The translations under genes were made by a program, and so were the position numbers. This document shows positions 42,896 to 47,140 of a stretch of 64,000 nucleotides of DNA, one piece after another. The notes under the pieces are model-generated. The model was not told the DNA's origin and made no database searches. It was given only the letters and a program-made list of their open reading frames with translations. How positions within the stretch are numbered: the stretch's first letter is position 1; every line of letters begins with the position of its first letter. Source of the stretch: Escherichia coli (lineage in GTDB: Bacteria > Pseudomonadota > Gammaproteobacteria > Enterobacterales > Enterobacteriaceae); NCBI RefSeq assembly GCF_017348835.2, contig NZ_CP071375.1, one strand, 5' to 3'.

Positions 42896-44287
42896 ATGAA
42901 CTTTCCATTAATTGCGAACATCGTGGTGTTCGTTGTACTGCTGTTTGCGCTGGCTCAGACCCGCCATAAACAGTGGAGTCTGGCGAAAAAAGTGCTGGTG
43001 GGTCTGGTGATGGGTGTGGTTTTTGGCCTTGCCCTGCATACCATTTATGGTTCTGACAGCCAGGTACTTAAAGATTCTGTACAGTGGTTTAACATTGTTG
43101 GTAACGGCTATGTTCAACTGCTGCAAATGATCGTTATGCCGTTAGTCTTCGCCTCTATTCTGAGCGCGGTTGCCCGTCTGCATAACGCATCTCAGTTAGG
43201 CAAAATCAGTTTTCTGACCATCGGTACGCTTTTGTTTACCACGCTGATTGCGGCGCTGGTCGGTGTGCTGGTCACCAACCTGTTTGGTTTGACGGCTGAA
43301 GGTCTGGTTCAGGGTGGTGCAGAAACTGCACGTCTGAACGCCATCGAAAGTAACTATGTTGGTAAAGTCTCTGACCTGAGCGTTCCGCAGCTGGTCCTGT
43401 CCTTTATCCCGAAAAACCCGTTTGCCGATCTGACCGGAGCCAATCCGACGTCAATTATCAGCGTGGTAATTTTTGCCGCATTCCTCGGTGTAGCTGCGCT
43501 GAAACTGCTGAAGGATGATGCGCCGAAAGGTGAACGCGTCTTAACCGCTATCGATACCCTGCAAAGCTGGGTGATGAAACTGGTTCGCCTGGTCATGCAG
43601 TTGACCCCTTACGGCGTTCTGGCACTAATGACCAAAGTGGTTGCAGGTTCTAACCTGCAAGACATCATCAAACTGGGAAGTTTCGTTGTCGCGTCCTACC
43701 TCGGTCTGCTGATTATGTTTGCAGTGCATGGCATTCTGCTGGGCATTAATGGCGTGAGTCCGCTGAAGTACTTCCGTAAGGTATGGCCTGTGCTGACGTT
43801 TGCCTTTACCAGCCGTTCCAGTGCTGCGTCTATCCCACTGAATGTGGAAGCACAAACGCGTCGTCTGGGCGTTCCTGAATCCATCGCCAGTTTCGCCGCC
43901 TCTTTCGGTGCGACCATTGGTCAGAACGGCTGCGCCGGTTTGTATCCGGCAATGCTGGCGGTGATGGTTGCGCCTACGGTTGGCATTAACCCGCTGGACC
44001 CGATGTGGATTGCGACGCTGGTCGGTATTGTTACCGTTAGCTCCGCAGGCGTTGCCGGTGTCGGTGGTGGTGCAACTTTCGCCGCACTGATTGTGCTGCC
44101 TGCGATGGGCCTGCCAGTAACCCTGGTGGCGCTGTTAATCTCCGTTGAACCGCTTATAGACATGGGCCGTACGGCGCTAAACGTTAGTGGCTCGATGACA
44201 GCTGGCACGCTGACCAGCCAGTGGCTGAAGCAAACCGATAAAGCCATTCTGGATAGCGAAGACGACGCCGAACTGGCACACCGTTAA
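42896..44287 (+). CDS. tcyP: L-cystine transporter, sodium:dicarboxylate symporter family
   Basis: 463-aa membrane ORF. Confidence 0.9.
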
Positions 44288-44290
44288 TTC

Positions 44291-45094
44291 TTATGCTGGC
44301 AACGGCCCGTTTTGTATAGGGGCCGTTGCCTTACTTTTTAAATGTTCCATCGCGGCGATGCATACTGACTCATATTTAAACAGATCGTCAGCGAAAAAAA
44401 TGTCCAACTTATCAATACATTCCTGGCTCAATAAATGTGCCTGTAGCGAGAAGCTTAAAACCTCATACCCGAGACGTTTTCTAAGTGAAATATCTGAAAT
44501 ACTCATAATATCTTCAAGCACACCACTTCCCATTCCCGGAAGATTTAGTGGATTAAAAAGAAGATTGATATTAAGCATTGATATTATCGAAGGGAACTTC
44601 AGTAGATGCTCATTATTTTGAATCGCAGCAAAAATGCTCCCGGCAGGATGTATATAATTTTTTTCATAGTATATAGTCCTTAAATAATGAATAACCAACC
44701 TGTTTTTTATATTGATCAAATTGGTCATTTTTTCTGGGCGAAATACAGAAGTGACATCCATTCCAATAAAATCTTTATTTATACCTCTTATCCGAATTTC
44801 ACTACCATAAAGATTATTAATTATTACTTTATATTTAGCATTGTCCTGCAGATACGTATCAAAACTAAGTGCTGGCGCTCCTGGCTTTGAGGCATCAAAG
44901 TTAATGTTAGACATATAGGCAATCATATAATTAAAATTTGATTCTGCTATTTCATCGCAGTCACATTGACCCGTTGATATAAAGAAAGTGAGTGCTGTCA
45001 TAGTAGACTGCAGCCTTTCTTTAAAAGAGTCGAAAGCCAGGCTTTTAATATTTAAATCACCATAATTACTCTGTATTAAGTTTGTAGAAAACAT
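44291..45094 (-). CDS. ydjO: Uncharacterized AT-rich protein YdjO
   Basis: ORF track 44291..45106 (271 aa); probable start at the internal Met (MFSTNLIQ) preceded by SD-like AGGTGGGAG. Confidence 0.65.
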   Translation of the reverse strand: MFSTNLIQSNYGDLNIKSLAFDSFKERLQSTMTALTFFISTGQCDCDEIAESNFNYMIAYMSNINFDASKPGAPALSFDTYLQDNAKYKVIINNLYGSEIRIRGINKDFIGMDVTSVFRPEKMTNLINIKNRLVIHYLRTIYYEKNYIHPAGSIFAAIQNNEHLLKFPSIISMLNINLLFNPLNLPGMGSGVLEDIMSISDISLRKRLGYEVLSFSLQAHLLSQECIDKLDIFFADDLFKYESVCIAAMEHLKSKATAPIQNGPLPA

Positions 45095-45162
45095 CTCCCA
45101 CCTCATATTGAACCGCCCCGGAAATCCTGGAGACTAAACTCCCTGAGAAAGAGGTAAACAGG

Positions 45163-45489
45163 ATGACTAAAAATACTCGTTTTTCCCCCGAAGTCCGTCA
45201 GCGGGCGATTCGTATGGTTCTGGAAAGTCAGGATGAATATGACTCACAATGGGCGACAATTTGTTCCATTGCTCCAAAGATTGGCTGTACGCCGGAGACT
45301 CTGCGTGTCTGGGTTCGCCAGCATGAGCGGGATACCGGGGGCGGTGATGGCGGGCTCACCACCGCTGAACGTCAGCGTCTGAAAGAGCTGGAACGTGAAA
45401 ATCGTGAACTGCGCCGCAGTAACGATATCCTTCGCCAGGCTTCCGCTTATTTTGCGAAGGCGGAGTTCGACCGCCTCTGGAAAAAATGA
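45163..45489 (+). CDS. IS3-family transposase OrfA (HTH DNA-binding part)
   Basis: 108-aa [19 protein letters not shown]... with leucine-zipper-like C-terminus; recalled as IS629-type OrfA. Confidence 0.85.
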
Positions 45490-46376
45490 TGCCACTGCTG
45501 GATAAGCTGCGTGAGCAGTACGGGGTCGGACCGCTATGCAGCGAACTGCATATTGCCCCGTCAACGTATTACCATTGTCAGCAACAGCGACATCATCCGG
45601 ATAAACGCAGTGCCCGTGCGCAGCACGATGACTGGCTGAAGAAAGAGATACAGCGCGTATACGATGAAAATCACCAGGTATACGGTGTGCGTAAAGTCTG
45701 GCGTCAGTTGTTACGGGAAGGTATCAGAGTGGCCAGATGCACTGTGGCACGTCTCATGGCAGTTATGGGACTTGCCGGTGTTCTCCGGGGTAAAAAGGTC
45801 CGCACTACCGTCAGCCGGAAAGCCGTTGCCGCATGCGACCGCGTAAACCGTCAGTTCGTGGCAGAACGTCCAGACCAGTTGTGGGTGGCTGATTTTACCT
45901 GGGTAAGCACATGGCAGGGCTTCGTTTATGTGGCGTTCATCATTGATGTGTTCGCCGGATACATCGTGGGATGGCAGGTCTCATCATCCATGGAAACAAC
46001 ATTCGTGCTGGATGCACTGGAGCAGGCGTTGTGGGCCCGTCGGCCGTCCGGCACAATCCATCACAGTGATAAAGGTTCTCAGTATGTATCGCTGGCCTAC
46101 ACGCAGCGGCTTAAGGAAGCCGGATTACTGGCATCAACAGGGAGTACTGGCGACTCGTATGACAACGCGATGGCGGAGAGCATCAATGGTCTTTACAAAG
46201 CGGAGGTAATACACCGTAAGAGCTGGAAAAACCGGACAGAAGTGGAACTGGCCACACTCACGTGGGTGGACTGGTATAACAATCGACGATTGCTGGAAAG
46301 GCTGGGCCATACTCCCCCGGCAGAAGCAGAAAAAGCTTATTATGCTTCCATCGGAAACGATGATCTGGCAGCCTGA
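45486..46376 (+). CDS. IS3-family transposase OrfB (DDE catalytic part)
   Basis: 296-aa frame in -1 relative to orfA; integrase-core motifs; A6 run at 45481-45486 is a candidate slippery site. Confidence 0.85.
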
Positions 46377-46695
46377 GTTCACAGATAAAACACTCTCCAG
46401 GAAACCCGGGGCGGTTCATATTGTTAACAAAATTATTATCTCATTTAAATCTAAGTCATTTACAATATAAGTTTAAGAGCGACGCCACAGGATGAACTAT
46501 CAAAAATAGCTCATCATGATTAGCAAAACTTAACCATTTTAAAATAAATAAACAATTAAAGAAAAAAGATCACTTATTTATAGCAATAGATCGTCAAAGA
46601 CAGCTTTTTGTTACAGGTGGTTTGAATGAATGTAGCAATGAAATACAGAATTTCAGGCCATGTAACTCCCGGCAAAACCGGGAGGTACGTAATCT

Positions 46696-46938
46696 TTACT
46701 CAGTCACTTCCCCTTCCTGGCGGATCTGATTTGCCCAACGCTGGGCGGATTCAGGCACAGTAAACGCCGGTGAGCGCAGAAATGACTCTCCCATCAGTAC
46801 AAACGCAACATATTTGCCACGCAGCATCCAGACATCACGAAACGAATCCATCTTTATCGCATGTTCTGGCGGCGCGGGTTCCGTGCGTGGGACATAGCTA
46901 ATAATCTGGCGGTTTTGCTGGCGGAGCGGTTTCTTCAT
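46696..46938 (-). CDS. cedA: Cell-division modulator CedA
   Basis: 80-aa frame MKKPLRQQNRQIISY inside track ORF 46696..46959. Confidence 0.85.
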   Translation of the reverse strand: MKKPLRQQNRQIISYVPRTEPAPPEHAIKMDSFRDVWMLRGKYVAFVLMGESFLRSPAFTVPESAQRWANQIRQEGEVTE

Positions 46939-47140
46939 TACTGGCTTCACTAAACGCATATTAAAAATCAGAAAACTGTAGTTTAGCCGATTTAGCCCCT
47001 GTACGTCCCGCTTTGCGTGTATTTCATAACACCGTTTCCAGAATAGTCTCCGAAGCGGGGTCTGGCTGGTGGTCTATAGTTAGAGAGTTTTTTGACCAAA
47101 ACAGCGGCCCTTTCAGTAATAAATTAAGGAGACGAGTTCA

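Follow-up and report, generated by a model that had tools for sequence, protein, structure and literature searches.

The chromosome of E. coli carries, between the convergent core genes tcyP and cedA, an open reading frame whose composition departs from that of its host. Is this frame, ydjO, a genuine gene that arrived from elsewhere, a relic on its way to loss, a gene born in place, or a factor shaped by conflict? We evaluated these readings in a 64,000-nucleotide stretch of E. coli DNA (the window), for which the original prediction, made from the letters alone, had described an AT-rich, horizontally acquired and probably H-NS-silenced orphan. The account that we consider likely is that ydjO is a genuine accessory gene, carried on an acquired, AT-rich Escherichia cassette of ~1.1 kb, presumably held quiet by H-NS as in K-12 and disconnected from its promoter by an insertion sequence (IS) in strain PE164.

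Identity and composition of ydjO

In the RefSeq annotation of E. coli PE164, a strain from pig (NZ_CP114128.1), the ORF at 44291..45094 (minus strand) is named ydjO. It encodes a protein of 267 aa (~30.2 kDa, pI 5.7), and we assigned it as a coding sequence on the basis of the ORF list, the RefSeq annotation, its GC content and its dN/dS. The order of genes along the window is tcyP, ydjO, the IS, cedA and katE. The 267-aa start is favoured over an in-frame ATG at 45106 because a Shine-Dalgarno sequence, GAGGTG (45099..45104, minus strand), can be read from the sequence, with 4 nt between it and the annotated start codon at 45094. At its 3' end ydjO converges with tcyP, with only 3 bp separating the two stop codons (tcyP 44285-44287; ydjO 44291-44293). 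The intrinsic terminator of tcyP (44298..44339, plus strand) falls within the last 16 codons of ydjO. It is composed of an 11-bp GC-rich stem and UUACUUUUU, has a fold energy of -25.1 kcal/mol (z = -4.4 against shuffled sequences) and was detected in part by a terminator scan.

We compared the composition of ydjO with that of the window using the 41 non-overlapping ORFs of at least 200 aa. Its GC content was the lowest of the set, at 34.7% against 49.4% for the window and a mean of 50.8% (sd 4.4) for the other 40 ORFs (z = -3.7), and the same was true of its GC3 (31.7%; z = -3.5). On a leave-one-out codon index relative to the window it scored 0.592 against 0.714 for the others, the second-lowest value of the 41 (z = -2.8), and its combined share of Asn, Ile and Lys was the highest (24.6% versus 13.9%; z = +3.4). 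Base composition and codon usage thus both set ydjO clearly apart from its host, as had been expected from its visible AT-richness and many Asn, Ile and Lys codons. The contrast that had been drawn with tcyP and katE as flanking genes holds in composition, since these have GC contents of 53.1% and 52.2%, but katE is not the immediate neighbour. A second AT-rich island is present at 35054-36952 (plus strand), where the PE164 annotation gives the type III secretion effector EspL1 for a 632-aa ORF of 39% GC; the lowest 800-bp GC value in the window (0.34, at ~36201) lies in this island.

Homologues and predicted structure of YdjO

Sequence homologues of YdjO were found in Escherichia or Shigella only. 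Searches of 5.8 billion clustered proteins, 1.84 billion representatives and 100,044 species-representative genomes gave no homologue outside Escherichia. No relative was encoded by the species-representative genomes, among which the E. coli representative apparently lacks the gene. E. albertii possesses a 257-aa homologue (P0067, 125 member sequences) in the syntenic position between cedA and tcyP. This protein shares 31.6% identity with E. coli YdjO (63% at the DNA level), compared with 93-98% protein and 87-89% DNA identity for the neighbouring CedA, TcyP, YdjM and HxpB. BLASTP (E = 1.6e-40) and phmmer (E = 9e-28, scaled to the database) leave no doubt about the pairing. A blastn search with the E. 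albertii ydjO DNA gave no match in E. coli genomes. The exhaustive search of representatives missed this homologue, and the library was therefore incomplete on that point. On these comparisons, ydjO is restricted to the genus Escherichia and not to the species E. coli. The predicted orphan status stands insofar as no homologue is detectable outside this narrow taxon, but the range extends beyond a single species.

Two apparent relationships were rejected. P0033 (25% identity, E = 4e-34) resembled a remote homologue, but its contig (L005, Logan SRR33321306) proved to be the ydjO locus after an exchange of A for G and G for A, differing from the E. coli tcyP-ydjO locus by 422 A to G and 317 G to A changes; such A/G-swapped public records can mislead remote-homology searches. 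Paralogy of YdjO with YahL and YjfZ was discarded after BLASTP and hhalign comparisons found nothing. Two further records deserve mention. A 121-aa protein from a JGI metagenome (P0092) is a chimera, with its N-terminus from YdjM and its C-terminus from YdjO, which implies that its contig has lost tcyP and the greater part of ydjO by deletion or was misassembled there. In E. albertii GCA_027565375.1 (L082, 2566-3838) cedA directly follows chbG, and katE is missing at that position.

Together with yahL and yjfZ, ydjO has been described as encoding a conserved signature protein of E. coli and Shigella (PMC11057252), and it has served as an E. coli-specific qPCR marker. It resembles the ORFans, or taxonomically restricted genes, of E. 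coli, which include YahL and YjfZ, in its narrow clade, AT-richness and fast evolution. It differs from this class in that YdjO has a clear homologue in E. albertii and is unrelated in sequence to YahL and YjfZ. Nor is the gene conserved: it is missing from 21% of complete E. coli genomes, and roughly one-third of its carriers hold a broken copy. An assay built on ydjO would meet complete E. coli genomes without its target (presumably B2 strains, such as LF82 and Nissle) as well as the distant homologue in E. albertii.

In agreement with the predicted lack of recognisable motifs, domain and remote-homology searches placed YdjO in no curated family, defence system or solved fold. The E. coli protein had no match in Pfam, NCBIfam, PADLOC or PHROGs even at E <= 10, and for the E. 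albertii homologue the only listing was E2_bind, well below the cut-off (E = 0.1-0.2). A profile search of PDB sequences returned only a designed helical repeat (E = 0.02-0.16). A first AlphaFold model was unusable (mean pLDDT 43), which rendered the Foldseek search made with it meaningless. The second, built from 8 sequences with the E. albertii fragment in the alignment, is of moderate confidence (mean pLDDT 66, rising to ~80 over residues 20-130) and shows two helices, a five-stranded sheet and a further helix, followed by a helical C-terminal half. Foldseek searches of the PDB and of viral structures gave nothing at E <= 0.001, and this second model matched nothing specific. The maximum 19-residue hydropathy is 1.12, and YdjO has no membrane segment or signal peptide. 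Together these data predict a soluble cytoplasmic protein of ~30 kDa, with an N-terminal domain of two helices, five strands and one helix and a helical C-terminal domain.

Acquisition of the ydjO cassette

To what extent does the site itself record the arrival of ydjO? Across 54 cedA loci from species-representative genomes, cedA and tcyP are nearly always convergent neighbours, 45-100 bp apart, with a single bidirectional terminator between them. This compact arrangement occurs in ~50 species of Enterobacteriaceae, including members of Citrobacter, Salmonella, Enterobacter, Kluyvera and Leclercia, E. whittamii and three other Escherichia representatives. The same empty site is found in 1128 of the 5426 complete E. 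coli genomes, exactly those without ydjO, and the spacer of ~46 bp, occupied by the terminator, is seen also in B2 E. coli. Among these genomes are LF82, NRG 857C and a Nissle derivative, which we take to belong to phylogroup B2.

Where the site is filled, a segment of ~1.1 kb and 34% GC begins just past the stop codon of tcyP and reaches into the final five codons of cedA. It comprises ydjO, an AT-rich promoter region and a hairpin of its own at each end. The end of cedA co-varies with the cassette. In the window its stop and last five codons (46696..46713, minus strand) read GEVTE*, in place of NEVEE* at empty sites, so that CedA ends in QEGEVTE at filled sites and in QENEVEE, or a variant of this, at empty ones. 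The cedA gene as a whole (46696-46959, minus strand) encodes 87 aa here and in most RefSeq genomes, and 80 aa (243 nt) in K-12 MG1655, a difference in the choice of start codon.

Because the cedA-tcyP site is empty in ~50 species of Enterobacteriaceae and in some Escherichia, the cassette is the derived state. With the syntenic site empty in the outgroup, the comparison indicates that the empty site is ancestral and that the ydjO cassette is an acquisition within Escherichia, as the original prediction of horizontal transfer had proposed. In an Escherichia ancestor, the cassette replaced the short bidirectional terminator together with the last few codons of cedA. We found no donor, and no mobility signature (integrase, repeats or target duplication) at the cassette edges. 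Given that the right edge lies inside cedA, spread of the cassette between lineages probably occurred by homologous recombination. For empty sites in some Escherichia to occur alongside a cassette in E. albertii, either presence and absence must have coexisted as a polymorphism over a long time, or recombination or several gains must have taken place. The locus provides a clean, datable case of a single-gene cassette replacing a bidirectional terminator.

We also considered whether the tcyP terminator within the 3' end of ydjO could be ancestral core DNA into which the ORF had read. This idea came from one genome without ydjO, H55, which had kept those 67 bp. It was rejected because H55 carries an IS1-mediated deletion and true empty sites contain a different terminator. 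In HH97 (L011), and also in HH45, ~100 bp of G-rich sequence (GGGGGTGTCCCGG...) stands in place of ydjO and the region upstream of it, a probable assembly artefact.

Origin of ydjO de novo from AT-rich non-coding DNA within Escherichia, and not by transfer, would account both for the lack of homologues outside the genus in the protein and genome collections searched and for the lack of a mobility signature flanking the cassette. The ancestral site speaks against such an origin, as a spacer of ~46 bp holds no non-coding precursor, and the cassette came with a promoter and terminators already in place. E. albertii already has the gene at full length in a deeply diverged form, the N-terminal domain is modelled with good local confidence as a compact alpha/beta fold, and an open frame of 267 codons in 34%-GC DNA is improbable by chance. 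We regard birth in place as improbable.

Purifying selection and repeated loss

Across ten intact alleles, the dN/dS of ydjO in the annotated frame was 0.24 (0.19-0.26 across our several estimates). Four of the five other frames gave values of 0.92-1.23, and the antisense frame in which third positions coincide gave 0.33, so that the synonymous excess is specific to the annotated frame. Individual pairs of alleles reject neutrality (binomial P = 1e-7 to 1e-10), and dN/dS remained at ~0.2 whichever third of the gene or level of divergence was considered. Constraint is real but several-fold weaker than on tcyP and cedA, which give values of 0.02-0.04. Together these data show that ydjO is a genuine protein-coding gene under moderate purifying selection.

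This constraint coexists with frequent loss. The gene is present in 4298 of the 5426 complete E. coli genomes, leaving 1128 without it. Escherichia sp. MOD1-EC7003 retains only the last 32 codons as the remnant of a deletion, and in strain ES4 an IS1-bounded deletion removes the locus. We took 15 carriers at even steps down the similarity ranking and read their status from the annotations; in five of these ydjO is a pseudogene, with a frameshift or internal stops. Most alleles contain an A7 run (CAA AAA AAT) at codons 159-161, and A8 and A6 variants of this run, which yield products of 165 and 164 aa, occur in thousands of assemblies. In PE164 the run is interrupted and reads CAA AAT AAT (codons 158-161 correspond to 44612-44623 of the window). 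Insertions have also been reported, of IS10 at codon 175 in a heat-evolved K-12 strain (PMC10044804) and of an IS in O104:H4 strains (PMC3486847). ydjO can thus be dispensed with, and loss, truncation or IS insertion is common. So many pseudogenes are hard to square with purifying selection unless YdjO acts only under certain conditions, and the gene presents the case of an orphan still under purifying selection while repeatedly lost.

Such a record could also be left by a decaying relic, acquired once, functionless and drifting to loss, of which the PE164 copy would be one more inactivated allele. Absence from 21% of complete genomes, the broken copies among sampled carriers, the MOD1-EC7003 remnant, the slippage-prone run with its truncated products and IS insertions in several lineages are all consistent with this, as is the silent, H-NS-bound state of the K-12 gene in published tables (PMC3661553, PMC3946193). 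A functionless gene is, however, difficult to reconcile with a frame-specific dN/dS that stays at ~0.2 in every third and at every divergence level. E. coli and E. albertii have moreover both retained the full-length ORF although their proteins differ at 68% of residues, and this counts against a relic because a stop-free sequence of 34% GC is hard to keep without selection. We consider decay rather unlikely on this evidence.

Diversity of ydjO

The nucleotide diversity of ydjO (0.044) is higher than that of tcyP (0.015), cedA (0.009) and the adjacent intergenic DNA (0.024), and at each level compared its synonymous divergence is 3-9x the value for the flanks. A mosaic structure is seen in one E. 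coli allele (P0005, locus L008): codons 1-180, together with the upstream spacer, have diverged strongly (dS 0.66-0.85), and codons 181-267 and the flanks are ordinary (dS ~0.1). As sources of this diversity, recombination may have exchanged old alleles, the mutation rate may be higher locally, or selection on codon bias may be absent from an unexpressed gene.

It could also mean that YdjO takes part in conflict, perhaps as an anti-phage factor or an orphan immunity protein, and that diversifying or balancing selection keeps it variable. A diversity three times that of the neighbouring genes and above that of the adjacent intergenic DNA, the divergent portion of the mosaic allele, the low identity of the E. 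albertii orthologue beside neighbours at 93-98%, and a pattern of presence and absence that cuts across species are all consistent with such a protein. Yet dN/dS is uniformly ~0.2 with no region near 1, PADLOC and PHROGs gave no match, and ydjO stands alone, as neither a toxin nor an effector that might pair with it is encoded nearby. The raised dS, for its part, could reflect either the missing codon-bias selection or the higher local mutation rate. A role in conflict therefore seems to us a poor prospect next to these observations. A broader proposal, which we offer as speculation with little likelihood of being correct, is that YdjO founds a fast-diverging, Escherichia-only family with a fold absent from solved structures, kept by trans-species polymorphism in both presence/absence and alleles, for instance as a conditional conflict or niche factor held off by H-NS.

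Promoter region and H-NS

For K-12 ydjO, a constitutive RpoD promoter of the form ATGACT-16-AATAAT has been listed from genomic SELEX, where the tabulated entry carries an HNS mark (PMC3946193). An exact match, unique in the window and also recovered in a promoter scan, is located at 46432..46459 (minus strand). It lies in the ydjO-cedA intergenic region (46422..46695; 31% GC), which also contains a cedA-proximal hairpin at ~46664-46688 and is equivalent by alignment to a K-12 'promoter island'. The K-12 spacer is one of 78 such islands (Table 1, row 1811053_320 ydjO(-)/cedA(-), H-NS class K); as tabulated in the same source, it is H-NS-bound in the Kahramanoglou and Oshima data sets, and ydjO is predicted to be foreign by Nakamura et al. 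and by Lawrence and Ochman (PMC3661553). The H-NS evidence is thus from K-12 only and comes through secondary tables. Within the window, the H-NS motif TCGATAAATT (up to 2 mismatches) occurs 4 times per 1.1 kb at ydjO against 1.7 times per kb overall, a weak enrichment. By analogy with K-12, H-NS would bind the AT-rich promoter region and ydjO would be transcriptionally quiet, in line with the silencing originally proposed.

These features align ydjO with the xenogeneic-silenced genes of E. coli and Salmonella and with the promoter islands of Shavkunov, Ozoline and colleagues. It shares with them a low GC content (34-35% in a genome of ~50%), a patchy distribution and an AT-rich upstream region with a constitutive sigma-70 promoter. 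In contrast to them, the ydjO cassette spans only ~1.1 kb and one gene, lacks an integrase, a tRNA and repeats, replaced the terminator between two convergent core genes and forms part of no larger island; the H-NS binding assigned to it comes from K-12. The AT-rich, foreign, H-NS-bound and signature-gene character of ydjO is already published for K-12, and as a textbook lineage-restricted orphan of this kind the gene is ordinary for its class, so that the value added here is modest. New are the direction of change, from terminator to cassette, the E. albertii homologue, the combination of purifying selection with frequent loss, and the geometry of the IS insertion.

An insertion sequence upstream of ydjO

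The IS that had been noticed directly upstream of ydjO is an element of 1310 bp (45109..46418, plus strand; 53.7% GC), which begins 14 bp upstream of the ydjO ATG, within the 5' untranslated region. Its ends are imperfect terminal inverted repeats starting TGAACCGCCCCGG. A 3-bp target-site duplication, TAT, borders it on the left (45106..45108) and on the right (46419..46421), as established on both sides by alignment to the uninterrupted K-12 sequence CTCATATTGTTAAC. RefSeq labels its two transposase ORFs (45163-45489 and 45486-46376) 'IS3 family transposase, programmed frameshift', and Rfam RF01497 (120 bits, E = 6e-32) places an ALIL frameshift pseudoknot at 45444..45560 (plus strand). Inverted repeats, a 3-bp duplication and orfA-orfB with a -1 frameshift together place the element in the IS3 family. 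From its length and ends we presume it to be IS629-like, RefSeq giving the IS3 family only.

The element resembles IS629 insertions that separate genes from their promoters in its length of 1310 bp, its TGAACCGCCCCGG termini and its 3-bp duplication. It resembles IS629 also in that a -1 frameshift with an ALIL pseudoknot links its two ORFs, and in being present many times in the genome of its host. It differs from those insertions in that its site, at about +5 of the ydjO leader, is occupied in PE164 alone, 1 of the 5426 complete E. coli genomes, and in that its effect on expression is deduced from its position. Copies of the element in other E. coli are 98.6-98.9% identical.

Without the IS, the -10 element of ydjO would end ~25 bp upstream of the ATG. 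The insertion falls between this published promoter and the ribosome-binding site, only a few bases past the expected transcription start, and for this reason the PE164 copy of ydjO is probably promoterless. In this strain the IS629-like element entered 14 bp upstream of the ATG, and the native promoter would now fire into 1.3 kb of antisense IS sequence; the gene is accordingly judged, from this geometry, to be probably silent in PE164. A consensus scan found no promoter-like site facing ydjO from the IS end; an outward promoter at that end, or read-through across the IS, may lie beyond what such a scan can detect. In the PE164 chromosome, the query containing the IS matched 32 places, which suggests that the IS629-like element has expanded in this strain.
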